From the NCBI GenBank assembly GCA_018674305.1, contig JABHAL010000004.1:256446-320445 (forward strand): DNA of 64,000 bases. Reading direction: 5' to 3'. A program made the translations under genes and the position numbers. This document shows positions 3,034 to 48,743 of the stretch, one piece after another (positions within the stretch are counted from its first letter, which is position 1; each line of letters starts with the position of its first letter). Below the pieces are notes generated by a model. It was not told the origin of the DNA. It made no database searches and was given only the letters and a program-made list of their open reading frames with translations. This DNA is from Candidatus Falkowbacteria bacterium (GTDB taxonomy: Bacteria; Patescibacteriota; Patescibacteriia; UBA11705; JABHMO01).

Positions 3034-5547
3034 ATGCCAAAGAAAAAACAAACTGAAAAAAAGCCCAACGAAGAGCAGGCTCCAATCAAGGCAGCAGTTC
3101 AGGATATTTCTATAATTGATGAAATGCAAAGTTCATACATTGATTATGCTATGAGTGTTATAGTTTCTCGAGCGTTGCCAGATGTCCGAGATGGGCTAAA
3201 GCCTGTTCATCGTCGAATTCTGTATGCTATGTGGAGCGTTGGACTTCGTTCTAGTTCTAAATTTCGTAAATCGGCTACGGTAGTCGGTGAGGTTTTAGGT
3301 AAATATCATCCGCATGGTGATCAAGCTGTTTATGATTCAATGGCTAGGATGGCTCAGGACTTTAACATGCGCTACATGTTGGTTAATGGTCAGGGAAACT
3401 TTGGTTCAATGGATGGTGATAGGCCAGCGGCGATGCGTTATACCGAAGCAAAATTAAGAGGCATTTCTGAAGAATTATTATTTGATTTAGAAAAAGATAC
3501 TGTTGATTTTAATCCCAACTATGACGGATCCCACAAAGAGCCCAGTGTTTTGCCAGCCAAGTTGCCACATTTACTTTTGAATGGTGGTGTGGGTATTGCA
3601 GTTGGTATGGCAACCAAGATACCTCCCCATAACCTGATGGAAGTTTGTGATGCGGTGTGTCATATGATTGATAATCCCGATTGTAATTCAGAAGATTTAA
3701 TGGAGCATGTCAAAGGCCCAGATTTCCCAACTGGCGGTATTATTTATGATCAAACTGAAATAAAAAGAGCTTACACTACGGGAAAAGGTAAGATTGTTAT
3801 GCGTGGTAAAACTGAGATTGTTGAAAGCAAGGCCGGTCAATTCAAAATAATTATTTCGGAAATTCCATATCAATTAAACAAAGCCAGTCTATTGGAAAAG
3901 ATTGCAGAGTTTGTAAAAACAAAAAGATTAGAAGGTATTAGGGATGTGAGAGATGAGTCTAATAAGGATGGTGTACGAATTGTGGTTGAGCTTAAGCGAG
4001 ATGCTTTCCCTAAAAAAGTTTTGAATCGGTTATTTAAATTAACCCAACTGCAATCAAATTTCGATGTTAATATGTTGGCTTTGACGGGTGATTATCAGCC
4101 AAAGGTTATGAACTTGTTTGATATTCTTAATTATTATCTTATTCATCGTCAGGAAGTTGTTGTTCGGCGAACAAAATATGAATTAAAAAAAGCAGAAGAT
4201 CGTGCACATATTTTGGAAGGTTTAAGCAAGGCCATTGATAAGATCGATGCAGTGATAAAAATCATTAGAAAATCAAAAGACAAGGAATTAGCAAAGCAAA
4301 ATTTAATTAAGCAATTTAAATTTACTGATATTCAAGCAGTTGCTATTTTGGAAATGCGATTACAGAACTTGGCGAATTTGGAGCGTTTAAAAATAGAAAA
4401 CGAATTAAAAGAAAAGAAAAAAATTATTGCCGCATTAAAAAAATTACTATCTTCTAAAAAAGGTATTTTGGGTGTAATTAAAGATGAGTTAACTGAAATT
4501 AAAGAAAAATATGGTGATGAACGAAAGACTAAGATCATTAAGTCGGCAGTAGGTGAGTTTTCTCAGGAAGACTTGGTCCCGAATGAGCCAGCCTTGGTAA
4601 TGGTCACAACGGATGGATATATTAAACGAATGCCACTAGAGACTTTCAAAACTCAACATCGAGGAGGTAAAGGGGTTATCGGTCTAACAACCAAGGAGGA
4701 AGATGTTGTTGATTTATTATTTACTACTTTGACACATAACGATTTGTTGTTTTTCACTTCAATGGGCAGAGTGTTTCAGCTAAAAGCTTATGATTTGCCA
4801 ATTGGTTCAAGAACCTCAAAGGGACAGGCCTTGGTCAATTTCCTTCAGCTCGGACCTGATGAAAAAGTAACAGAAATATTACCAATAAAAGATCAGACCG
4901 ATGCTAAGTTTTTATTCATGGTTACTGAGAAGGGAACGATTAAGAAAACTGCGATTGAAGATTTTGCTAATGTCCGTCGTTCTGGCTTGATTGCTATTCG
5001 TCTAAAGCCTGGGGACCGTTTACGTTGGGTTAAACCAACTAATGGAAAAAAGCAAATGATGTTAATTTCTGCTCGTGGTCAAGCAATCAGGTTTGCGGAA
5101 AAAGACGTACGAAGCATGGGGCGTACTGCGGCAGGTGTGCGTGGTATTAGACTGAAAGCCGATGATCAATTAGTAGGTGTCGGAATGATTGAACCGGACA
5201 AAGAAAAAGTTTTGCAAGTTTTGACCTTAGCAGAAAACGGCTTTGGTAAGCGTTCAAACCTATCAAACTACAAAGTCCAAAATCGTGGTGGTGGTGGTAT
5301 CAGAACCTTGAAGGTTTCCAGCAAAACCGGAAAAGTTGTGAAAGGGATGATTATTGATTCTGAGCAAAATAAAGATAATGATATTATGGTCATTTCTAGT
5401 AAAGGTCAAGTAATAAGAATGCCTTTCAAGACGATCAGCGAACTTGGGCGTGATACTCAGGGAGTTCGATTGATGCGCTTTAAAGAATCCAAGGATAAGG
5501 TAGTTACATTTTCAAAAATTGTAACTGACGTGAAAGATCGAGGATAA
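3034..5547 (+). CDS. gyrA: DNA gyrase subunit A
   Basis: N-terminal [27 protein letters not shown] motif and C-terminal beta-pinwheel repeats; 837 aa. Confidence 0.95.
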
Positions 5548-26269: not shown

Positions 26270-26314
26270 CTTTTATTGATAAGGACCTTTAAATGGACAC
26301 AGGGAGGATGTGAA

Positions 26315-27065
26315 ATGTCTAATCCTACAGATACAGGTACAATTAATTGGTATGAATTGTATCAGCAAACTGAAAGACTGATGAAAAAGACTAGTTCTAA
26401 GCTTAAAGAAGCTGATGACTTGATTGGCTCTATGAGAGTCAAGGAAGATGAATTACTGGCAGAAATTGAGCAATTGAAGGAGAAACTGGATGAGTTTCAA
26501 ACAGATCAGCTAACTGATTTGATGCCATCCAAATTGTTCAATAAAATTTTAGAGAAGTATTTCTTACAAGCGCAACGAAGTCTTCAAAGTGTAACCAATA
26601 GTTTGGGGAAAGCTCCGGGGAAGTCGTTAACAATTTTAGTTATTGATGTTGATCGATTCTCAATGATCAATGATCAATGATCAGTATGGAAGTGATTTTG
26701 GCGATCTGATTTTGCAATTCGTGGCAATGGTTATTAGTAAAAAGATTCGTGGATGTGACATTGTTACCAGAAAAGGTCAACAGTTCCGGGTAGCGCTGAT
26801 TGATTGTGATGCAAAAGCTGGTATTATGAAAGCGCAGGAAATTTCTAAGAGAATAAATCGTCAGGCTTTCGGTAGTGGGCAGGACGACGAGGTCAAAATT
26901 GCTGTTACCATCGGGATCGCTACTTATGATCATAATATGACTTTACCGCAACTGCGTGAAAAAGCATTTTGTGCAATGAAGCATGGCAAGGATGCAGGTT
27001 GTAGGAATTGTGTGTCTGTATATGGGAAGAGTGGAGACTATCAAATTGTCTTCAAGCCTAGCTAA
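26315..27065 (+). pseudogene. Degenerate GGDEF-domain (diguanylate cyclase-like, GQQF instead of GGEEF) protein with an N-terminal coiled coil. It is split into two ORFs by a frameshift at a (CAATGAT)x3 heptamer repeat; removing one unit restores a single in-frame protein
   Basis: ORF1 ends ...LVIDVDRFSMINDQ* and ORF2 begins MINDQYGSDFGDL..RKGQQFRVAL..IGIATYD (GGDEF fold); tandem heptamer at 26662-26684. Confidence 0.6.
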
Positions 27066-27076
27066 TTAAATGACCC

Positions 27077-27104
27077 AACCCGGAAAAATTTCCGGGTTTT
27101 TTAT
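27077..27104 (+). terminator. Intrinsic terminator (cccggaaa-aa-tttccggg + T-run)
   Basis: Perfect stem read directly. Confidence 0.7.
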
Positions 27105-27320
27105 TTCTCACAACTGTTCTTGACAAATAATTTTAAGATGATAAAATTGTATTACAATGTAATACACTGCCATGCGTGAAGGAATTACCAATAATCAATA
27201 ATCAAATCCTAAACAATTACCTAAATAAAAATAACCAAACTATAAATATTTTGAGAGTTGTGAATTGAATATTATAATTTGTTTATTATTTGGTGGTTGT
27301 GATTTGGTCATTATATAGTT

Positions 27321-27461
27321 ATGCGATGTGTTGTAACCATTTCTTTGCCAGAAGAGATGTGCAAAGAAGTAGCAAAACAAATGAAAAAACATAAGTTTGT
27401 GTCTAAAAGTGAATTCATGCGACATGTTCTTCGTTTTTGGTTAGAGAATAATGGTAAATAG
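27321..27461 (+). CDS. Ribbon-helix-helix (CopG/Arc-like) small DNA-binding protein, 46 aa; not in the ORF track
   Basis: MRCVVTISLPEEMCKEVAK...SKSEFMRHVLRFWLENNGK matches an RHH beta-strand plus two helices; possible regulator or antitoxin. Confidence 0.45.
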   Translation: MRCVVTISLPEEMCKEVAKQMKKHKFVSKSEFMRHVLRFWLENNGK

Positions 27462-27585
27462 GTACTGATAATACTAATTTACTGATGTGAAAAAATAGAG
27501 TTAAAAATTATTTTGTATTGATGTTGGTGATTACTATTTAAATTTATTTATCAGTATATCAGTAACAATCAGTAATCAATTTCAT

Positions 27586-27903
27586 ATGGAATTAAAAGAC
27601 AACAACTTTGAACAAGAAGTTCTTAAGTACGAAGAGGGGCCAGTGTTAGTAGATTTCCATGCACCTTGGTGTGGACCGTGTCAAATGCAAGGTCCAATCA
27701 TTGAAGAGCTATCCAAGGAAATGCAGGACACTAAAGCAAAGGTATTTAAATTAAATGTTGACGAGAGCAATCAAACCGCTCAAAAGTATGGCGTAATGAG
27801 TATTCCAACATTGATTATTTTTGTTAAAGGGGAACCGAAGGAAACCATGAATGGTTTACAAAATAAAGATGTTCTAAAAGAAAAATTACAAGCGTTAATG
27901 TAA
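27586..27903 (+). CDS. trxA: Thioredoxin
   Basis: WCGPC active site; 105 aa. Confidence 0.9.
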   Translation: MELKDNNFEQEVLKYEEGPVLVDFHAPWCGPCQMQGPIIEELSKEMQDTKAKVFKLNVDESNQTAQKYGVMSIPTLIIFVKGEPKETMNGLQNKDVLKEKLQALM

Positions 27904-28032
27904 TTTAAATCCTAATATCTAAATCCTAAATCCTAAACAAATTAAAATTTTCAAAATGCAAATATGGAGATGAATTTAGTGATTTTGAGTTTTGGGCCTT
28001 GTTTAGAGTTTAGCGATTAGAATTTAGAGTTT

Positions 28033-29001
28033 ATGAATAAATATGATGTCATTATAATCGGTGGTGCTTGTGCCGGATTGTCCGCGGCGGTTTACACCGC
28101 TCGACGTGAATTAAAAACTGTGGTTTTAACTAAAGATGTAGGTGGCCAGTTAGCTATTACTACTGAAGTTGAAAACTACCCAGGAACTTTGTCAATCAAA
28201 GGACCTGAATTAGCTATGAAATTCAAAGAACATGCTGAAAAGTCTGGAGCAGAAATTAAATTTGCTGAAGTTACAGAGATTCAAAAAAAGGAATCTGGCT
28301 ATGTTGTTAAAACCAAGGAGGAAGAGTATGAAGCCCCAGTGGTTATACTCGCTTTTGGCTTAAAACAGCGCCTGCTGGGTGTTCCAGGTGAAAAGGAATT
28401 AACTGGTAGAGGTGTGGCTTATTGTGCTACCTGTGATGGCCCGTTATTCAAAGGAAAAAGGGTTGCAGTTGCTGGTGGTGGTAATTCTGCTTTTGATGCA
28501 GCGGACTATTTAGCAGATTTGGCAGAAAAAGTTTATATGTTTATTCGCCGAGACGTGTATCGAGCTGAGGACACTTTAATTGAGGCAGTCAAAGCAAGAG
28601 ATAATGTTGAAATTATAGATTTTATAGAAGTTGAAGAATTTATTGGTGCTCATAAATTAGAAAAAGTGAAATTGATGAATAATGAAACCAAGGAAAAAAG
28701 CGAACTTGAACTGGAGGGTGTTTTTATTGAAATTGGCTGGGAAAGTCAAGTTAAACAAATTAAAGGACTATCTGAATTGGTTGAAGTTAGCGAACGTGGC
28801 TTTGTTGTTGTTGATAATGAAGGCAAAACAAAAGCTGACGGAATATTTGCTGCCGGAGATGTTACCGATACTCCATTCAAACAGGCTGTAATTTCAGCGG
28901 GTGACGGCGCCAAGGCAGCTATGGGCGCAGCAGTATACATTCAACGCTCAAGAGGGAGAGAGATTGGAGATGTTTTGAGTGATAGAGCTAAGCGAAAGTA
29001 A
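28033..29001 (+). CDS. trxB: Thioredoxin-disulfide reductase
   Basis: FAD motif GGACAGLSAA, redox CATCDG, NADPH motif GGGNSA. Confidence 0.9.
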   Translation: MNKYDVIIIGGACAGLSAAVYTARRELKTVVLTKDVGGQLAITTEVENYPGTLSIKGPELAMKFKEHAEKSGAEIKFAEVTEIQKKESGYVVKTKEEEYEAPVVILAFGLKQRLLGVPGEKELTGRGVAYCATCDGPLFKGKRVAVAGGGNSAFDAADYLADLAEKVYMFIRRDVYRAEDTLIEAVKARDNVEIIDFIEVEEFIGAHKLEKVKLMNNETKEKSELELEGVFIEIGWESQVKQIKGLSELVEVSERGFVVVDNEGKTKADGIFAAGDVTDTPFKQAVISAGDGAKAAMGAAVYIQRSRGREIGDVLSDRAKRK

Positions 29002-29011
29002 ATAATGAATT

Positions 29012-29596
29012 ATGCAAGAATCAATTAAACCACAAGAAAGCCTAAAACAAAGTTTACAAAAAATTTCCCAAACTTTTAAAGATGATTTACACCAGCTTGG
29101 TCTTGGTGAGGTTGAAGGTGAAGAGTCACGTGATTTTGATTTTGAAAATTACGGGTTAAAGTTCGAACAATCCGAAGTTGAACGAGGGGAATTTAAATTT
29201 GAATATGATTTAATGCAACTGCAAGAAATGATTAAAGAATTAGAAGTGACTTTAAAAGTTGGAGGAGAAGAAGCTTGGCAAATGACTTATCGAGAAGGTG
29301 GACGTTTTTTGGCTGCTTGTTTTGCAGGTTTGGAATATCTTGAAGATCCGAAAGAAGCTTTTGCTACCTTGGTTTTTCGTTTAACAAAAAATCATCCTTG
29401 TGAGGATGGCAATAAACGAATTAGTTCAGTGATGTTTGTTCTTGGCTTGCTAGAAAATGGTATGCAAATTGAAGAAATTAAACAAAATATTGACCTTGAA
29501 GAGTTCGGGATGGTTATGAGCCAAATTGAAAGTGAAAAAGGCGATGAAGTTCGTGAAAAAATAAACAAGTTTCTGGCAGGTTTAGGGTATAAATAA
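29012..29596 (+). CDS. Fic/Doc-family protein with an acidic N-terminal extension (Doc-like HPCEDGNKR motif)
   Basis: HxFx(D/E)GNKR signature of Doc/Fic near the C-terminal half; 10 bp after the trxB stop. Confidence 0.55.
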   Translation: MQESIKPQESLKQSLQKISQTFKDDLHQLGLGEVEGEESRDFDFENYGLKFEQSEVERGEFKFEYDLMQLQEMIKELEVTLKVGGEEAWQMTYREGGRFLAACFAGLEYLEDPKEAFATLVFRLTKNHPCEDGNKRISSVMFVLGLLENGMQIEEIKQNIDLEEFGMVMSQIESEKGDEVREKINKFLAGLGYK

Positions 29597-29597
29597 T

Positions 29598-29632
29598 AAA
29601 AGTCACTAATTGATAGTGACTTTGTATTTTGT
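29598..29632. terminator. Bidirectional terminator (aagtcacta / tagtgactt) between convergent genes
   Basis: Read directly. Confidence 0.6.
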
Positions 29633-30178
29633 TTAACTATAGACGTGAATTGAATCTCTATCCTCTCCCATATAAGCACCACAGATTGTACAGTGGAGAT
29701 TTGACCCGCTATGCCCTGAAAGTGGCATCTCTCCAATAGTGTTTTCGTAACGAGATTCTGGTGAGCCAGGAACAATACCACAAGTACTGCATTTATAAAA
29801 TGGGGGAGCAAAGATTGTGTGATTTGTTCCAGTTCTTTCTTGTAGCTTTCTAAGTGATTTTTCAACTGCAAGGTTTGCTTCTGTGTCGTCAGGTTTTTTA
29901 GACTGCATTATGGTGACCATTTGATGGGTCATAATGAGAATATCATGCAGTGCTTTTTTCCCCTTGGAAACATAGATTTCTTTTTCTGGTATAATTTCGT
30001 CGAGATAGTATTTGTTGTCTTGTTGAATAACTTCATGGTTGGGAAATGAGTGTTGCAAAAAGGCAAGGACAGTATCAAAAACTTTACCTTGATCCTTAAG
30101 TAGCCTCATTCTTTCATCATGAATTTGTGCATCAAGCACAGTTCGTTGGAGTTCTAATTCCTCTAATTTATTACCCAT
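29633..30178 (-). CDS. Hypothetical protein with an N-terminal coiled coil and a C-terminal CxxC...HCxxC zinc-ribbon
   Basis: ORF with SD (cggaggtttataATG); Cys pairs CSTCG and HCTICG. Confidence 0.45.
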   Translation of the reverse strand: MGNKLEELELQRTVLDAQIHDERMRLLKDQGKVFDTVLAFLQHSFPNHEVIQQDNKYYLDEIIPEKEIYVSKGKKALHDILIMTHQMVTIMQSKKPDDTEANLAVEKSLRKLQERTGTNHTIFAPPFYKCSTCGIVPGSPESRYENTIGEMPLSGHSGSNLHCTICGAYMGEDRDSIHVYS

Positions 30179-30243: not shown

Positions 30244-31524
30244 ATGTCAACACCATTTGAAAATGCAATTAAACAATTAGAAAAAGCTGCTCAAGTAATT
30301 AATCTTGATAATAAAGTTTTTCAATTGCTAAAAACTCCAGATCGAATTTTGCAAGTTAAAGTGCCAGTAAAAATGGACGATGATAGTTTGAAAATATTTG
30401 AAGGATACCGAGTTCAACATAATAATTGGGCTGGGCCATACAAAGGGGGTCTTCGTTATTATCCGACAGTTGATCTGGACGAAGTTAAAGCCTTAGCGTT
30501 TTGGATGACAATTAAATGTGCAGTGGCCGGGATTCCTATGGGTGGAGGAAAGGGTGGAGTTACCGTTAACCCAAAAGAGTTGAGTGAAGGTGAATTAGAA
30601 AGACTCAGTCGTGAGTTTGGTAAAGCTTTAGCTCCTAACATCGGACCGAAAGTGGACGTGCCAGCTCCAGACGTTTATACCAATTCAAAGATTATGAGTT
30701 GGGTGAAGGAATCATTTGTTGAATATCAAAAAAATATAATTAAAGAAAACGGTTTTGAATTGACTGAAAAACAAGAAAAAGAGTTTGATGCAGTTATTAC
30801 CGGTAAAGCAATTGATGAAGGTGGTAGTCTGGGCCGTGATCGTGCCACAGCAATGGGCGGATTTTACATCTTACAACAAATGGTTGAGACGCGATTAATC
30901 TCGTCTTTACAACCAACCATCGCCATTCAAGGTTTTGGTAATGCGGGTATGACCATGGCAGAGCTTTGCGCGGAAGCTGGTTATAAAGTTGTGGCCGTAT
31001 CTGACTCCAAGGGGGCTATTTATAATTCGGAAGGATTAGATATTAAAAAGGTGGTTGAACAAAAGAAATCCACAGGGCAAATTCAGGAGATTGAGGGTGG
31101 AAAGGAGATAACTAACAGTGAATTGCTGGAGTTAGAGGTGCACGTTTTGGTCCCAGCTGCCTTAGAAAATGTTATTACCAAGGACAATGCAGATAATGTT
31201 AAAGCCAAGTTTATTATTGAATTGGCCAATGGGCCGGTAACTCCAGAAGCAGATGAAATTTTAGCTAAAAATAGCATAAAATCAGTGCCTGATGTATTGG
31301 CTAATGCTGGTGGCGTAACTGTCAGTTATTTTGAATGGCAACAGAATTTAGATAATAGCTCCTGGACAGAAGAGGAGGTTCTTGCTAAGCTAAAGGAGGT
31401 TATTATTCCTGCCTGGAAAGAAACTTTGCAAATTCACCAAGAAAAGCAAATTGACTTAAGAACAGCTGCTTTTGTCCGAGCACTGGAAAGATTGAAAAGA
31501 CTTTGCTATACTATAAATACATAA
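30244..31524 (+). CDS. gdhA: Glutamate dehydrogenase (Glu/Leu/Phe/Val dehydrogenase family)
   Basis: Catalytic K-region GGGKGG, NAD(P) Rossmann GFGNAG. Confidence 0.9.
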   Translation: MSTPFENAIKQLEKAAQVINLDNKVFQLLKTPDRILQVKVPVKMDDDSLKIFEGYRVQHNNWAGPYKGGLRYYPTVDLDEVKALAFWMTIKCAVAGIPMGGGKGGVTVNPKELSEGELERLSREFGKALAPNIGPKVDVPAPDVYTNSKIMSWVKESFVEYQKNIIKENGFELTEKQEKEFDAVITGKAIDEGGSLGRDRATAMGGFYILQQMVETRLISSLQPTIAIQGFGNAGMTMAELCAEAGYKVVAVSDSKGAIYNSEGLDIKKVVEQKKSTGQIQEIEGGKEITNSELLELEVHVLVPAALENVITKDNADNVKAKFIIELANGPVTPEADEILAKNSIKSVPDVLANAGGVTVSYFEWQQNLDNSSWTEEEVLAKLKEVIIPAWKETLQIHQEKQIDLRTAAFVRALERLKRLCYTINT

Positions 31525-35165: not shown

Positions 35166-37991
35166 ATGAAGTACGATCACAAAAAAATTGAAAAAAGGTG
35201 GCAGAAATTTTGGCAAGAAAATGAAGTTTATAAAACTCAGGATGATAAAGAAAAACCAAAGTATTATATTTTGGATATGTTCCCTTACCCTTCAGGTGCA
35301 GGTTTGCATGTGGGACATCCAAAGGGTTACATTGCCACTGATATAATTGCTCGTATGAAAATGATGCAGGGCCATAATGTTCTTCATCCTATGGGGTGGG
35401 ACGCTTTTGGTTTGCCGGCAGAAAATTATGCAATTAAAAATAAAGTTCATCCACGCGATGCAGTAGCCAAAAATGTTAAAGTTTTCAAGGAACAGTTGAA
35501 TAAAATTGGATTTACTTATGACTGGAGTCGCGAGATTAATACCACAGATCAAGATTATTATAAGTGGACTCAGTGGACGTTTTTGAAAATGTTTGAAAAA
35601 GGTTTGGCTTATGAATCTGAAGAACCGATTATTTGGTGTCCAAGTTGTCAGACTGGCTTAGCAATGGAAGACTTGGAGGATGGCAGGTGTGAACGTTGTA
35701 ATAGTGAGATTGAACGGAAACCAATGCGCCAGTGGGTTTTGAAAATTACTGATTATGCTGAGCGTTTATTGAATGATTTAGATAAGTTAGATAAGTGGCC
35801 AGATTCTATTCGAGAGATGCAGAAGCATTGGATTGGTAGATCAGAGGGAGCTGAGGTAAAATTTGAAATCCGAAATTCGAAATTCGAAATTACCGTTTTT
35901 ACTACTCGTGCTGACACTTTGTTTGGGGCGACATTTATGGTGTTAGCGCCTGAACATCCGTTAGTTCAAGAAATCACAACTGAAGAAAATAAAAAACAAG
36001 TTGAAAAATATATTAAAAAAGCTTCAGCTAAATCAGATCTTGAACGAGCAGAATTACAAAAAGATAAATCTGGGGTTTTTAGTGGAGCGTATGCCATAAA
36101 TCCTGTTAATAATGAAGAAATACCAATTTGGATTGCTGATTATGTTTTGATGAACTATGGCACCGGTGCAATTATGGCTGTTCCAGCGCATGATCAACGT
36201 GATTTTGAGTTTGCAAAGAAATACGATATTCCGATCGTGCCAGTTGTAATGCCATTTATCAAGGCTCAGGATAATGATTTGCCAAAAAAGAACAAAAAAA
36301 CAGAAAAGAGAAATAATGTGATTGTAGTTGTTAAACATTGGGCAGAGGATAAATATTTTTGCTTGGATTGGAAGAATTTCGGTTGGACTTCTTTTGTTGT
36401 CGGTGGAATTGAGGATGGCGAAAGTTCCGAAGATGCAGCTTTGCGAGAAATGAGAGAAGAGTCGGGTTATCAAAATGTTAAGTCAATTAAAAAATTAGGT
36501 GGACCGATAGCTACAAATTTTTTTGCTAAACACAAGGATATTAATCGTGAAACGGTTATTGAAGGCTTTTATGTTGAATTAACTGATGGTGAATATGTTG
36601 AACCATTAGATAAGGATGTTGAGCATCATGTTGGACAGTGGGTTGATAAGGATAAAGTGTCTTCATTTATTAATTTGGAAAATCATTCCTGGTTTTTTGA
36701 TATATCAACGAATGGAGAATCAGTTTATTCTGGTAAAGGAATAAGTATTAATTCTGAGGAATTCAATGGACAAACTACATTAGAAGCTATGGAGGGAATT
36801 GTTAAAAAAGCTGGAGCAATCAAAAAAATAAATTATAAACTTCAAGACTGGGTTTTTTCTCGTCAGCGATATTGGGGTGAGCCAATTCCAATAATTCATT
36901 GTGAAAAGTGTGGCCCCGTAGCAGTTCCAGAAAAAGATTTACCAGTTAAACTACCGGAAGTTGAGAGTTACGAACCAACTGGAACAGGTGAGTCACCTTT
37001 GGCAGGTATTGATGAATGGGTGAATGTTGAATGTCCGAAGTGCGGTGGTCTAGGAAAAAGAGAAACTAATACCATGCCTCAGTGGGCAGGTTCCAATTGG
37101 TATTATCTTCGTTATATTGATCCAGCTAATGATAAAGCTTTAGTCGACAAAGAAAAAGAAAAATATTGGTCTCCAGTTGATTTTTATGTCGGCGGTGCAG
37201 AGCATGCTACTCGGCATTTAATTTATTCCCGGTTTTGGCATAAGTTTTTATTTGATATCGGAGCAGTTAGTTATGATGAACCATTTACTCGACTTCAGCA
37301 TGTAGGTTTAATCATGGCCGAAGATGGCCGAAAAATGAGTAAGCGCTGGGGGAATGTTATCAATCCAGATGATATTATAAAAGAGTACGGCGCTGATGCC
37401 CTGCGTGCTTACGAAATGTTCATGGGTCCATTTGATCAGGCTAGTGTTTGGGATACTAATGGGTTGCGAGGAGTCAAAAAGTTTTTGGATAAGGCACACG
37501 ATTTAGGAGGTAAAGGGGACAAAGGAGATAATAAAGAAATTGTTACTCTGTTGCATAAAACGATAAAAAAAGTCACCAAAGACATTGAAACTATGGATTT
37601 CAATACTGCTATTTCACAGATGATGATTTTTGTAAATAAAATTCAATCAACTGGCTGTAGTCAACAGACACGTAAAATGTTTTTACAAGTATTGAGTCCG
37701 TTCGCACCACATTTGTGTGAAGAATTATGGAGTCAGCTCGGGGAAAAGCAAAGTATTTTCTTGTCTGAGTGGCCAAAGCATGATGAGAAGTTAATTATTG
37801 AGGAGACAGTTGAAATTCCAGTCCAAATAAATGGCAAAGTACGAGTTAAGCTTCAGGTTGAACCTAATATTTTAGAAGAAAAATTGAAAGAATTGGTTTT
37901 TGCTGATGACCAAGTGCAACGATACGTTGAAGACAAAGAAGTAAAGAAATTCATTTATGTTAAGGGCAGGTTAGTAAGTTTAGTGGTTTAA
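35166..37991 (+). CDS. leuS: Leucyl-tRNA synthetase carrying an in-frame ~160-aa Nudix hydrolase domain insertion (approx nt 36250-36735)
   Basis: HVGHPKGY (HIGH), TTRADT editing motif, AHDQRDFEFA and KMSKR (KMSKS). A perfect Nudix box GGIEDGESSEDAALREMREESGY (GX5EX7REUXEEXGU) lies between the editing domain and the SEEFNG motif. Confidence 0.9.
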   Translation: MKYDHKKIEKRWQKFWQENEVYKTQDDKEKPKYYILDMFPYPSGAGLHVGHPKGYIATDIIARMKMMQGHNVLHPMGWDAFGLPAENYAIKNKVHPRDAVAKNVKVFKEQLNKIGFTYDWSREINTTDQDYYKWTQWTFLKMFEKGLAYESEEPIIWCPSCQTGLAMEDLEDGRCERCNSEIERKPMRQWVLKITDYAERLLNDLDKLDKWPDSIREMQKHWIGRSEGAEVKFEIRNSKFEITVFTTRADTLFGATFMVLAPEHPLVQEITTEENKKQVEKYIKKASAKSDLERAELQKDKSGVFSGAYAINPVNNEEIPIWIADYVLMNYGTGAIMAVPAHDQRDFEFAKKYDIPIVPVVMPFIKAQDNDLPKKNKKTEKRNNVIVVVKHWAEDKYFCLDWKNFGWTSFVVGGIEDGESSEDAALREMREESGYQNVKSIKKLGGPIATNFFAKHKDINRETVIEGFYVELTDGEYVEPLDKDVEHHVGQWVDKDKVSSFINLENHSWFFDISTNGESVYSGKGISINSEEFNGQTTLEAMEGIVKKAGAIKKINYKLQDWVFSRQRYWGEPIPIIHCEKCGPVAVPEKDLPVKLPEVESYEPTGTGESPLAGIDEWVNVECPKCGGLGKRETNTMPQWAGSNWYYLRYIDPANDKALVDKEKEKYWSPVDFYVGGAEHATRHLIYSRFWHKFLFDIGAVSYDEPFTRLQHVGLIMAEDGRKMSKRWGNVINPDDIIKEYGADALRAYEMFMGPFDQASVWDTNGLRGVKKFLDKAHDLGGKGDKGDNKEIVTLLHKTIKKVTKDIETMDFNTAISQMMIFVNKIQSTGCSQQTRKMFLQVLSPFAPHLCEELWSQLGEKQSIFLSEWPKHDEKLIIEETVEIPVQINGKVRVKLQVEPNILEEKLKELVFADDQVQRYVEDKEVKKFIYVKGRLVSLVV

Positions 37992-38654: not shown

Positions 38655-39407
38655 ATGGCACTAGCACAGGAATTATTAGCAATTGGTTTAAGTGATAAGG
38701 AGGCAGATGTTTATTTAGCTGCATTGCAGCTTGGTTATTCTTCTGTTCAAGAAATATCACAGAAAGCTAATATTAATCGCACAACAGCATACACCCACAT
38801 TAAAAATTTAATCAGTCGGGGACTTTTGAATGCAACCGAAAAAAATGGTAAAATTTTTTATGTCGCTGAACGACCAGAAAAATTGGAATATATTTATGAA
38901 CAGCAGGAAAATGAAATCAAGCGCAGGCGACAGATGTTAGATCAAATCATGCCCAAGTTAGAATCTCTTTATAATGTAGCGAAAGATAAGCCTTCAGTTC
39001 GCTATTATAACTATAACAGCCCAGAAGATTTAAAGGTTGTTAGACAAGAAATTGCTCAACGGCGATCCAATATAATGTATAATATTTTTAATTATGAATT
39101 GTATAAAGATTATGTCTCTCGTCGTCATGTACAAAACATTTTAGATTCAGTCCAGACTTTTAAAACTATATATATAGCGAATCATAAAATTGTTGATAGC
39201 CGTTTACGACCACTCTTAAAAAACGATAAATTTTTCATTAAATTTCTCACAGAAGCAAAGTTTGGATTTTTGTGTGAAGTTCTAATATCTGATGATAATG
39301 TTTATATTGCTGGCAAAGGAGATTGGTTAATCATTCGCGATGAACTTTTTTCGCAAACCCTTGGTTTGTTATTTGAAGCTTTGTGGGGCATTGCTGAGGA
39401 ATTTTAA
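38655..39407 (+). CDS. TrmB-family HTH transcriptional regulator (paralog 1)
   Basis: N-terminal winged-HTH GLSDKEADVYLAALQLGYSSVQEIS...NRTTAY; ~250 aa with C-terminal effector domain. Confidence 0.65.
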   Translation: MALAQELLAIGLSDKEADVYLAALQLGYSSVQEISQKANINRTTAYTHIKNLISRGLLNATEKNGKIFYVAERPEKLEYIYEQQENEIKRRRQMLDQIMPKLESLYNVAKDKPSVRYYNYNSPEDLKVVRQEIAQRRSNIMYNIFNYELYKDYVSRRHVQNILDSVQTFKTIYIANHKIVDSRLRPLLKNDKFFIKFLTEAKFGFLCEVLISDDNVYIAGKGDWLIIRDELFSQTLGLLFEALWGIAEEF

Positions 39408-39428: not shown

Positions 39429-40172
39429 ATGTTAATTAAAGAGTTACAAGAATTTGGTTTAAGTGATAAAGAATCTAGAGTTTATTTGGCTGCTCTTGAA
39501 CTAGGAACATCCACGATTCAGGAACTTTCACAGAAATCAAATGTTAATCGAGCAACTACCTATATTCAGGTGGAGACATTGTTAAAAAGAGGATTGCTCA
39601 GTACAGTAGATAAAAATAAAAAAAGTGTTTTTATTGCTGAGCGACCTGACCGATTGTTGTCGATCCTGGATGAACAAAAGCAAAAGATTGAGAATAAACA
39701 TGACAAGATAAAAAAACTTATACCTGATTTTGAAGCTTTATATAATGTGATTGGCGATCGGCCAAGAGTTAGATTTTTTGAAGGAAGTGTAGGTGTGGAT
39801 GCTTGGAGGCAGGATGTTTATAAGTTTGGCCCAAGTCAGCTAGATATGATTTTACCGTTAGTAGAGGATTTTGATGAAAAGAGTCAAGATACAAGTTTTC
39901 TAGAGAAAATTTTAACGCGTGTTCAAGCGGTGAGATTATTAGTCCCGGAAGAAAAAAGACAATTCATGAATAAGATTTTAACATCAGAAAATTTGCTTGT
40001 GAAATATCACAAGTTAGTTGATTTTAGAGCTGAAATGATAATATATAGTAATAAGGTTTATATTAGCAAGGCTCTAGGCGCTGCTAATATGGCTGTGTTG
40101 ATGGAGGACAAAATGTTTTATAAGAGTTTTTTGGCGATATATGATGTTTTGTGGGATGTTGCAGAAGAGTAA
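39429..40172 (+). CDS. TrmB-family HTH transcriptional regulator (paralog 2)
   Basis: GLSDKESRVYLAALELGTSTIQELS...NRATTY. Confidence 0.65.
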   Translation: MLIKELQEFGLSDKESRVYLAALELGTSTIQELSQKSNVNRATTYIQVETLLKRGLLSTVDKNKKSVFIAERPDRLLSILDEQKQKIENKHDKIKKLIPDFEALYNVIGDRPRVRFFEGSVGVDAWRQDVYKFGPSQLDMILPLVEDFDEKSQDTSFLEKILTRVQAVRLLVPEEKRQFMNKILTSENLLVKYHKLVDFRAEMIIYSNKVYISKALGAANMAVLMEDKMFYKSFLAIYDVLWDVAEE

Positions 40173-47109: not shown

Positions 47110-47235
47110 TCGGGGTAGCTCCTTTGGCTATTTTCATATTTTTAGTTATTGTTCCTGAATTTATTCGGGGTAGCTCCTTTGGCGATTTTCATATCCTCAG
47201 TTATTATCCCTGAATTCATTCAGGGTACCTCCTTT
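47075..47235. repeat. Three tandem ~55-bp REP-like units, each holding a small hairpin (cctgaat-tc-attcRgg) plus the SD and first ~13 codons of the GT4 gene. The third unit supplies the C-terminus of the transposase-like ORF
   Basis: Direct alignment of units at 47075-47129, 47130-47184 and 47185-47235. Confidence 0.7.
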
Positions 47236-47769
47236 ACACAAAGTTTCAAGAAACATGTTTTCATCTTCATGTTTTTTTATTTTCAAAATAGACATTATTC
47301 TTAGTTCCAGTTCTTCTTGGTCAAATTCTTTACACAGTTCCTGAAAATTACAATATTTATATTTTTTCAATTCATTAAATGAGTGGATAATACCATGGCG
47401 GAGAGGGTTTCCTAGGATATATGCTGAAATGTTAGCATAAGCAAGTTCATCAAATATTGCCCAAGCGTAATATTTTTTCCAAAGTTGTCCTTCTCTGTTA
47501 GTTTGAATGTTAATTAATCGTGCTGATGCTCCCGCTAGATCTTTAAGGAATTTTTTACGTTGTTTTTGTTCTTCACAGTCAATAATTAAATGTAAATGGT
47601 TATTTAGTATGGCGAAATATTCAATATTAACATTATTATTTTTAGCTGCTTTATTAAATTGGTTTAAAATAATTTCTTTCAAAGGGTCGTCGAATTTTAC
47701 AATAATCTGATCAGTGAGTGAATAGGTGATGAAATATTTGCGTTCGGGGTAGAATTGGTATTTGAGCAT
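47197..47769 (-). mobile_element. HuH-Y1 (IS200/IS605-TnpA or RAYT-like) transposase, 190 aa
   Basis: HuH motif NHLHLII and catalytic Tyr region AYILGNP; flanked on both sides by REP-like hairpin repeats. Confidence 0.6.
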
Positions 47770-48011: not shown

Positions 48012-48743
48012 CTATTCTAAATTGTTCCAAACTAAATCCCATATTGATTTCATGGTCTGAGCAATTGCTTGATCTTCAATTATAACAGCTGTATAAGGTT
48101 TTTTAAAGGATATGAGCGAAACTTTACTTTGGTAAATGTTGATTTCGGTTTCAAAGTTAATATCTTTAACTAGTTTTGTTTGGCGTAGTTGTTCTTTGTC
48201 TTTCGATTTCATTAATTTCCCCTTCGGACCATTTTTTGCAATGCAGTAAAAATGAGTATTGTTTTTTTTGCGTGCTTCAGGTCCAGCTGACCAGAGAAAA
48301 TCTGCTGGCAGGGTTTCGAACATCTTTTCATAGTCAGTAAATCCGAATATTTCACCATCTTGAACCGCGTAGTCAGCATAAGCTGTTTTAAGTCCTTCAA
48401 GTCCTTGGTGGAATTTAACTTTTGGTTTATTTGCGGGAGCATTGAAGATACTTAAGAATTCAGGAAGGTTGTTTCGTGCTTGCTCAATCCTTTTTTCAGC
48501 TTTGCTTATTACGGTTTTGGGGTTTTCTGCGACAAGGAGAAGTTTGCTACCTTTTTTTATTTCACTAACTAGTCCAAGGTTCTTCAAATCTTCAAGAAAG
48601 TTGTATATACTGGTTCTCTTCACATTGGATTCTTCAGCAAGTTCTTGAACAGTGGCTGAGCCTAGCTCAAGACAGGCAAGGTACACTTTGGCCTGCTTTT
48701 TTTGTATACCTAAACTTGTAAGAGAATCGAGTAAGTATTGCAT
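48012..48743 (-). CDS. TrmB-family HTH transcriptional regulator (paralog 3)
   Basis: QKKQAKVYLACLELGSATVQELAEESNVKRTSIY. Confidence 0.65.
   Translation of the reverse strand: MQYLLDSLTSLGIQKKQAKVYLACLELGSATVQELAEESNVKRTSIYNFLEDLKNLGLVSEIKKGSKLLLVAENPKTVISKAEKRIEQARNNLPEFLSIFNAPANKPKVKFHQGLEGLKTAYADYAVQDGEIFGFTDYEKMFETLPADFLWSAGPEARKKNNTHFYCIAKNGPKGKLMKSKDKEQLRQTKLVKDINFETEINIYQSKVSLISFKKPYTAVIIEDQAIAQTMKSIWDLVWNNLE

Follow-up and report, generated by a model that had tools for sequence, protein, structure and literature searches.

What does a protein of the Doc/Fic family do directly behind the thioredoxin genes of a bacterium, with no antitoxin gene beside it? The question is raised by a locus in a 64,000-nt stretch of the Candidatus Falkowbacteria bacterium assembly GCA_018674305.1 (contig JABHAL010000004.1, positions 256,446 to 320,445, forward strand), which we refer to as the window and whose GC content is 36%. 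A sequence-only reading of this DNA had listed a small ribbon-helix-helix (RHH) gene, trxA, trxB and, 10 bp past trxB, a 194-aa open reading frame (ORF) bearing the motif HPCEDGNKR, all of which we recovered from the ORFs and by motif search, and had proposed that the RHH protein might be the regulator or partner of the 194-aa protein. Our analysis points elsewhere. The explanation that we favor, and hold to be reasonably probable, is that the ORF encodes a Doc-type (kinase-type) protein that is maintained by selection and carried, without an antitoxin gene, as cargo of an accessory slot, and that the RHH protein is a repressor of the thioredoxin locus, not the partner of Doc. The gene and its parts lie at the following window coordinates.

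29012 to 29596, plus strand: Doc-type Fic-fold protein of 194 aa, assigned by motif, profiles and predicted fold
29012 to 29200, plus strand: N-terminal segment of this protein, residues 1-63, family-specific by family alignment, models and dN/dS (ratio of nonsynonymous to synonymous substitution rates)
29201 to 29593, plus strand: Doc core, residues 64-194, with six to seven predicted helices and P1 Doc (3k33_A/3dd7_A) as top Foldseek matches
29393 to 29419, plus strand: catalytic loop H128-P-C-E-D-G-N-K135-R136

The Doc motif reads HxFx(D/N)(A/G)NKR, and a Lys at its position 8 marks Doc kinases, not AMPylators (PMC4177925). The sequence HPCEDGNKR is found once in the 194-aa protein, at residues 128-136, and lands in a sequence alignment on HIFNDANKR of P1 Doc, which is described as a kinase of EF-Tu acting on Thr382 (PMC4177925, PMC6529018). 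EF-Tu itself is absent among the ORFs annotated in the window. The Pfam model Fic (PF02661) is passed marginally, with 24.5 bits for a cut-off of 24 and over residues 110-144 only; the NCBIfam model TIGR01550 (DOC_P1) matches residues 112-184 with an E value of 1e-6 and 28.9 bits, below its cut-off of 38.65; and the PHROG "Doc-like toxin" is matched at 3.8e-7. A word-indexed search of 5.8 billion proteins returned six family clusters of 55-99% identity, whether the query was a single sequence or a profile, and repeat homology searches left the family at these six. When 1.84 billion representatives were searched exhaustively with a profile, the whole family came down to one representative, and the next matches had E values of 1e-8 or weaker. 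The 73 distant relatives found in this way, nearly all with HxFxDGNKR, comprise small classical Docs and ~330-aa RhuM-Fic/Doc fusions, the latter making up about half. Within the family alignment, His128, Asp132, Gly133, Asn134, Lys135 and Arg136 are invariant in six of six members. The third motif position is occupied by Cys in four of them and Leu in two, the canonical Phe being found in none; nearly all of the ~70 distant relatives have Phe there, two have Tyr, and two, P0010 and P0067, have Leu. Compared with an 81%-identical relative, the doc gene has a dN/dS of 0.12 (0.18 in the N-terminal segment and 0.10 in the core), and it is thus under purifying selection.

Structure prediction, which had been named as a check on the assignment, gave a Doc/Fic fold with P1 Doc and FICD as top matches in the PDB. 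We obtained two independent AlphaFold2 (AF2) models, one of the window protein and one of P0006, the most divergent family member, with pLDDT values of 77-78 and pTM values of 0.79-0.80. As searched with Foldseek, the window model has P1 Doc (3k33_A/3dd7_A) as its best PDB match, with a probability of 0.99 and a TM-score of 0.59-0.60 when normalized to Doc, over 123/124 columns. For the P0006 model, each of the top seven PDB matches is a chain of FICD or of P1 Doc, 3dd7_C giving a TM-score of 0.62 and a root-mean-square deviation (rmsd) of 3.8 Å; the FICD matches align over 224-231 columns and superpose poorly, with an rmsd of about 13 Å. Both predicted models display the six-helix fold of the Doc core. 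By motif, profile and predicted fold together, the 194-aa ORF is a genuine Doc-type Fic-family protein, as the sequence-only reading had proposed, and its residues ~64-194 are predicted to fold as a Doc core whose active site is apparently intact. The protein is also unusually acidic, with an isoelectric point (pI) of 4.6 and a net charge of -17, only two of the 47 ORFs being more acidic (the proteome median pI is 7.6). The acidic N-terminal region that had been pointed out does exist, residues 1-63 having a net charge of -7, but it is nothing special, for the charge is spread over the protein and residues 64-194 have a net charge of -10.

Is the RHH protein the partner of this Doc? We scanned metagenomes with an RHH alignment, which gave 22 loci, and then mapped the conserved neighbors. 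The backbone operator-RHH-trxA-trxB-(malic)-gdh-SWIB-RNase HII is present in about 19 distinct lineages, where malic stands for a malic-enzyme gene and gdh for the glutamate dehydrogenase gene. All six members of the Doc family lie between trxB, or the malic-enzyme gene following it, and gdh. Of the arrangement RHH-trxA-trxB-doc, whose conservation in relatives had been named as a check, these lineages keep the first three genes but often not doc, which is missing in at least 13 of the ~19: there, the trxB-gdh interval is fully covered and Doc-free, in some cases measuring only 8-90 bp. No Doc remnants were detected in these gaps by a maximum-sensitivity hmmsearch of every stop-free segment, the best E value being 2.9. 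RHH and Doc are found together in the window and in L001, L002 and L005, and doc in L001 is separated by a 1-nt spacer from the malic-enzyme gene on one side and from gdh on the other. L031 has the order IF2-trxA-trxB-doc, followed by a 244-aa Y1 (IS200-like) transposase-like gene and then gdh, and neither an RHH gene nor the operator palindrome was found in it. For each Doc-positive lineage there is a closer Doc-negative sister, namely L021 for L001 (TrxB 87% identical), L016, L017 and L022 for L005 (GDH 77-80% identical) and L010 for the window and L002 (IF2 74-75% identical). Across the six Doc-positive lineages, Doc and GDH identities correlate only moderately, with a Spearman coefficient of 0.44 (p = 0.10), and the patchiness may stem from repeated loss or from lateral exchange. 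The GC content of doc is below that of its neighbors, most clearly in L001 (0.32 vs. 0.41-0.42), and the only gene common to all six Doc-positive loci is doc itself.

The slot holds other cargo as well, including ~90-aa proteins with two transmembrane segments encoded on the opposite strand and a 130-aa four-helix-bundle protein; in L013 a GNAT-like ORF follows trxB on a contig that ends ahead of gdh. Thus, doc is an accessory gene that can be dispensed with, carried in a slot of variable content that runs from trxB (or the malic-enzyme gene) to gdh, and small accessory genes are concentrated at the junction downstream of trxB (L013, L016, L017, L018, L022, L029 and L031). This gene distribution firmly indicates that RHH and Doc are inherited independently and that no partner gene travels with Doc. 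The link between Doc and thioredoxin comes down to position, Doc sitting in a slot of variable cargo. We also considered as a partner the 181-aa orphan ORF that lies next to doc in the window, for which we found only three homolog clusters and no family match, and rejected it because the slot of L033 contains this ORF (1710-2258) but no doc, and because the Doc-positive loci L001, L005, L031 and L032 lack it. As a separate observation, the contig with L001 and L008 (CAZQEI010000001.1, GCA_964592195.1) is titled "uncultured Gammaproteobacteria bacterium" at NCBI and is syntenic gene for gene with the Falkowbacteria window, including RHH, operator and Doc; the Gammaproteobacteria label is probably wrong.

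The window locus has the gene order IF2-GGDEF-RHH-trxA-trxB-doc-(181-aa ORF, minus strand)-gdh-SWIB-RNase HII, and its features other than doc are as follows.

27120 to 27147, plus strand: promoter-like TTGACA-16 nt-TAAAAT for the RHH-trxA-trxB-doc unit, with 11/12 consensus matches and a TG extension
27148 to 27166, no strand assigned: candidate operator, the double palindrome TGTATTACA-A-TGTAATACA, two 9-bp palindromes with centers 10 bp apart
27321 to 27461, plus strand: ribbon-helix-helix (CopG-type) protein of 46 aa (Pfam RHH_1, E 6.9e-7)
27461 to 27577, plus strand: RNA hairpin spanning the RHH-trxA spacer, minimum free energy (MFE) -24.6 kcal/mol, z -2.2
27586 to 27903, plus strand: trxA, thioredoxin with WCGPC (Pfam Thioredoxin, E 9.4e-29)
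27906 to 28033, plus strand: RNA hairpin spanning the trxA-trxB spacer, 29-nt inverted arms, MFE -28.8 kcal/mol, z -3.1
28033 to 29001, plus strand: trxB, thioredoxin reductase with a CATC active site (Pfam Pyr_redox_2, E 9e-39)
29599 to 29623, bidirectional: hairpin terminator serving both doc and the 181-aa gene that converges on it, with a stem of 10 bp and T tracts on either strand
29633 to 30178, minus strand: 181-aa orphan ORF with a C-terminal CxxC...CxxC, no family match
30244 to 31524, plus strand: gdh, glutamate dehydrogenase, conserved and, by neighbor mapping, the gene that bounds the variable slot on its downstream side

The Doc-like protein, RHH, TrxB and the 181-aa protein all have identical NCBI entries in Candidatus Falkowbacteria metagenome-assembled genomes (MAGs), the first under the name "hypothetical protein HN858_03620" and TrxB as "thioredoxin reductase (NADPH)." The 46-aa RHH gene had been described as missed by the ORF track. 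It does lie upstream of trxA, and its family is borne out by a match to Pfam RHH_1 (PF01402; 29.5 bits, cut-off 20.5) over residues 5-42, but in four Falkowbacteria MAGs NCBI already annotates the protein, as "ribbon-helix-helix protein, CopG family."

If the RHH protein is not an antitoxin, what does it control? Its homologs have 45-52 aa, its dN/dS is 0.18, and it consists of a bare 46-aa β-α-α fold without a C-terminal toxin-binding extension, in which Cys3 and Cys14 are invariant in 19 of 19 sequences from distinct lineages. Upstream of the RHH gene in 19 of 19 distinct lineages, with no more than two mismatches, lies the 19-bp double palindrome TGTAwTACA-n-TGTAATACA, a sequence with a single occurrence in the window that stays unchanged amid flanking DNA too divergent to align. 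It is found directly after a TTGACA/-10 promoter or holds the -10 element of that promoter, a promoter geometry seen in about 20 related lineages, and is 1 to 154 nt away from the RHH start codon. Since the palindrome keeps its place at the promoter despite this variable distance, it tracks the promoter, as expected of an operator; L031, which has no RHH gene, is also devoid of it. A pair of 9-bp palindromes with this spacing of one helical turn would be a fitting target for an RHH repressor that, like CopG and Arc, acts as a dimer of dimers. The protein resembles such minimal repressors in its 46 aa, its RHH_1 match and a promoter that abuts or overlaps tandem short palindromes one helical turn apart, and differs from them in that it putatively controls a trx operon, in a bacterium of the candidate phyla radiation (CPR), and has two invariant Cys. 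It is, to judge by these sequence features, probably an (auto)repressor of the thioredoxin locus acting on the putative operator, and Cys3 and Cys14 may serve as its thiol switch. Neither an RHH regulator of trx genes nor a thiol-switch RHH was found in the literature searched, and the conserved RHH-operator-trx unit with its invariant Cys would, hypothetically, be a more original element than Doc. Between operator and RHH start codon, the window has a lineage-specific insert of ~150 nt with a 27-nt imperfect direct repeat (74% identity; 27250-27276 and 27289-27315), the first copy of which holds a second promoter-like site, TTGAGA-16-TATAAT.

The doc gene is most likely co-transcribed with trxA-trxB, as had been suggested. 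Although the 194-aa ORF had been called fused to the thioredoxin operon, the trxB stop ends at 29001 and the doc ATG is at 29012, which leaves 10 nt between them, and the two reading frames differ, so that the genes are adjacent and there is no protein fusion. A terminator follows the upstream GGDEF gene (27077-27098), and from there the plus strand shows no further terminator-like site up to the hairpin just past doc (29599-29623), which has an equivalent after doc in L002 (6589-6612). Because a terminator scan found none between trxB and doc, in the window as in L002 and L005, and a hairpin terminator stands past doc, a single RHH-trxA-trxB-doc transcript under RHH control is the most economical reading, and RHH would regulate doc here in a purely transcriptional sense. 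No Shine-Dalgarno sequence was seen in the 25 nt before the start codons of RHH, trxA, trxB, doc and gdh (27321, 27586, 28033, 29012 and 30244). Spacers within the operon tend to form hairpins (z -2.2 to -8.6 across lineages), the sequences differing and the hairpin character recurring. The hairpin of the RHH-trxA spacer has analogous but non-homologous counterparts in L002 (z -2.6) and L001 (z -8.6), and a structure similar to the trxA-trxB hairpin is found in L002 (z -3.0); the spacers concerned are 3043-3183 in L001 and 4450-4528 and 4841-4975 in L002. The hairpins may be elements of RNA processing or stability, or miniature inverted-repeat insertions. The GGDEF gene upstream of RHH (26276-27065) is itself broken up into two ORFs, which overlap, by three tandem copies of the 7-nt unit CAATGAT (26661-26681). 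Its counterpart in L002 is 7 nt shorter at the repeat and intact, with 225 aa, and the split gene could be a pseudogene, a case of slipped-strand variation or an assembly error.

How, then, could a Doc be tolerated without an antitoxin? No Phd/YefM or other antitoxin family was matched by residues 1-100 in Pfam or NCBIfam, which agrees with the earlier remark that no Phd is recognizable. Residues 1-63 stand ahead of where P1 Doc starts, and they contain family-conserved positions, the invariant LHxLGLGEV (residues 26-34) as well as Asp43, Gly48-Leu49, Phe61 and Phe63. Both models show a kinked helix from about residue 11 to 27 or 31, with a pLDDT of about 80, followed by an acidic linker of low confidence. 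When the full-length protein was compared by hhalign with 24 RhuM-type proteins, the alignment covered query residues 10-153 at a probability of 98.9%. We examined whether the segment is a relative of the RhuM-type middle region and set the idea aside as unsupported, the segment alone giving a probability of 0.85% in a different register; the long alignment is carried by the Doc core, because the segment by itself fell to that value. A precedent for restraint within one chain is EzeT, a zeta-toxin kinase with a cis-acting N-terminal antitoxin demonstrated in a single polypeptide (PMC4803016). EzeT likewise is a solitary kinase domain of a toxin family, with no antitoxin gene, and has a conserved stretch of 60-80 residues ahead of that domain (PMC4803016); it differs in having the zeta/PezT UDP-N-acetylglucosamine (UNAG) kinase fold vs. 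Fic/Doc, and in that its cis-inhibition is shown, that of the Falkowbacteria Doc being only inferred. By this analogy, inhibition of the Doc core in cis by its N-terminal segment, the alternative offered in the sequence-only reading, is plausible. Class II Fic proteins (FICD/HYPE and NmFic) share with our protein the Fic fold and a helix N-terminal to the core, and FICD is among the top matches of the P0006 model. In contrast to these proteins, the Falkowbacteria Doc has a loop of the Doc type (Lys), not of the AMPylator type (Gly), and the inhibitory motif [ST]xxxE[GN] was absent from the whole protein in a regular-expression search; because it lacks this α-inh motif, it is not a class II Fic protein.

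In the explanation that we favor, the Doc core would use ATP to phosphorylate a target protein, which by analogy with P1 Doc could be a translational GTPase such as EF-Tu, the acidic surface leaving the target open. The protein would be tolerated without Phd through restraint in cis by the N-terminal segment in the manner of EzeT, through attenuation by the change of the motif Phe to Cys or Leu, or through both. Transcription would read through from the RHH-trxA-trxB promoter into doc and end at the hairpin, and because the trx promoter is shared, the dose of Doc would rise with that of TrxA and TrxB. A series of observations weighs against this explanation. Profile support from the single sequence is weak (Pfam is passed by only 0.5 bit, and TIGR01550 is missed), and Foldseek E values are modest, at 0.1-0.4, though the probabilities are 0.9-0.99 and the two models agree in their matches. 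Replacement of the motif Phe may have lowered or abolished activity, and so acidic a protein is atypical of Doc cores, making a target other than EF-Tu possible. The N-terminal segment gives nothing meaningful when searched alone in a PDB profile search, and, as said, the inhibitory motif of class II Fic proteins is lacking. As for regulation, binding of RHH to the palindrome is deduced from their co-occurrence only, and read-through rests on simple consensus scans in CPR bacteria, whose signals are poorly known.

The proposal that RHH and Doc form an atypical split toxin-antitoxin module, with RHH as the antitoxin or dedicated regulator of Doc, has some appeal, because RHH-type antitoxins are a known class, the RHH protein weakly matches the ParD antitoxin model (E 0.01), both genes belong to one probable transcription unit in the window, and they co-occur in four loci. 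However, RHH and operator accompany trxA-trxB in at least 13 Doc-free lineages, and L031 has trxA-trxB-doc and neither of them; the RHH protein has no toxin-binding tail, its gene is kept apart from doc by two housekeeping genes, and doc in L001 is wedged between the malic-enzyme gene and gdh. Because of this gene distribution, a split module is essentially excluded, and we regard it as highly improbable. P1 Doc, of the Phd-Doc system, and the Falkowbacteria Doc share the loop with Lys at position 8 and the six-helix core, P1 Doc being among the best structural matches. Unlike in P1, there is no Phd/YefM or other antitoxin gene upstream of the Falkowbacteria doc but trxB or a malic-enzyme gene instead, and the gene is chromosomal, in a CPR bacterium and inside a housekeeping operon; the protein has an extra N-terminal segment of ~60 aa, Cys or Leu for the motif Phe, strong acidity and a TIGR01550 score below cut-off. 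The adjacent, co-inherited antitoxin gene by which type II toxin-antitoxin modules (Phd-Doc, RHH/AbrB/MazE-Doc) are recognized is thus missing.

More deserving of attention, though still doubtful, is the view that this one gene, in the manner of RhuM-Doc, serves in anti-phage defense or abortive infection: an autoinhibited Doc kinase that happens to have its place in the trx operon, and is expressed with it, would shut down translation when triggered by infection. By sequence, the Doc core is most closely related to RhuM-Doc fusions (Virulence_RhuM plus Fic; BifA of Streptococcus equi is an example), at an E value of 1e-8 in the exhaustive search. PADLOC places these fusions in its single-gene candidate family PDC-S23, and the literature checked describes no dedicated antitoxin for them (PMC3710099). 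PDC-S23 is the best PADLOC match of our protein, at 1.4e-9, and is matched by the distant RhuM-Doc relatives at up to 1e-131; RhuM/Doc genes occur in restriction-modification and defense neighborhoods (PMC3710099); and the patchy distribution, the variable slot, the Y1-transposase-like neighbor in L031 and the low GC of doc would all fit. Yet the similarity to PDC-S23 is limited to residues 102-167 of the Doc core, and the RhuM N-terminal domain (PF13310), present in P0007, P0012 and P0030, is absent, so that ours is not a RhuM-Doc protein. Moreover, doc lies outside restriction-modification or defense islands, with no such genes nearby, and is packed inside housekeeping operons with 1- to 10-nt spacers; PHROGs, apart from its generic Doc family, showed no link to phages, and the BFVD viral structure library gave no significant match. 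A little more doubtful again is that the protein is an attenuated or dead Doc relic, kept for a nontoxic role such as binding or regulating a partner and hence in no need of an antitoxin. Every family member has Cys or Leu where nearly all ~70 distant relatives keep Phe, and the solved P1 Doc structures are, by their PDB entry titles, of the motif mutants H66Y and F68S. The unusual acidic surface and the lack of an antitoxin beside doc also speak for a relic. H66Y and F68S were reportedly chosen for structure determination since they lower toxicity. Against this, the loop His, Asp, Gly, Asn, Lys and Arg are invariant across homologs of 55-99% identity, the dN/dS of 0.10 in the core is the pattern expected of a working active site, and Leu at the third motif position is also found in a few other Doc-motif proteins (P0010 and P0067). 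A bolder idea, which we rate as speculative and quite unlikely, is a single-chain Doc toxin-antitoxin, in which the N-terminal segment (helix 11-27 plus LHxLGLGEV) would dock on the core in cis as the Phd C terminus does in trans and be released by a signal. The trx promoter being shared under a Cys-bearing RHH, oxidative stress would then increase, along with the thioredoxin system, a kinase that arrests translation. No report of a single-chain Doc was found in the literature searched. If true, a cis-restrained Doc under the RHH/trx promoter would be the first of its kind and would tie the arrest of growth to redox stress in the minimal cell of a CPR bacterium.

Elsewhere in the window, the 941-aa leucyl-tRNA synthetase (35166-37991) has an unusual architecture, in that the editing domain (residues 220-372) is closely followed by an inserted NUDIX domain (residues 386-498; PF00293, E 1.2e-10). 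There are three paralogs of a TrmB-like regulator, at 38655-39407, 39429-40172 and 48012-48743, two of them adjacent, and a gene for a 190-aa IS200-like Y1 transposase at 47197-47769.

Solitary Doc domains are already known, and the Falkowbacteria protein is a further member of the Fic superfamily, on its Doc branch. Returning to the explanation that we favor, the locus would mean that Doc-type kinases persist without an antitoxin gene in streamlined CPR genomes, and it offers a compact, 194-aa candidate for self-restraint of Doc domains in cis or for their taming by a Phe-to-Cys/Leu change in the loop. It also advises caution, because the finding of two genes side by side in closely syntenic genomes does not count as evidence that they are toxin and antitoxin. 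Finally, the RHH protein with its two invariant Cys, together with the conserved palindrome, is a concrete and testable candidate for the regulation of thioredoxin in Falkowbacteria-like bacteria.

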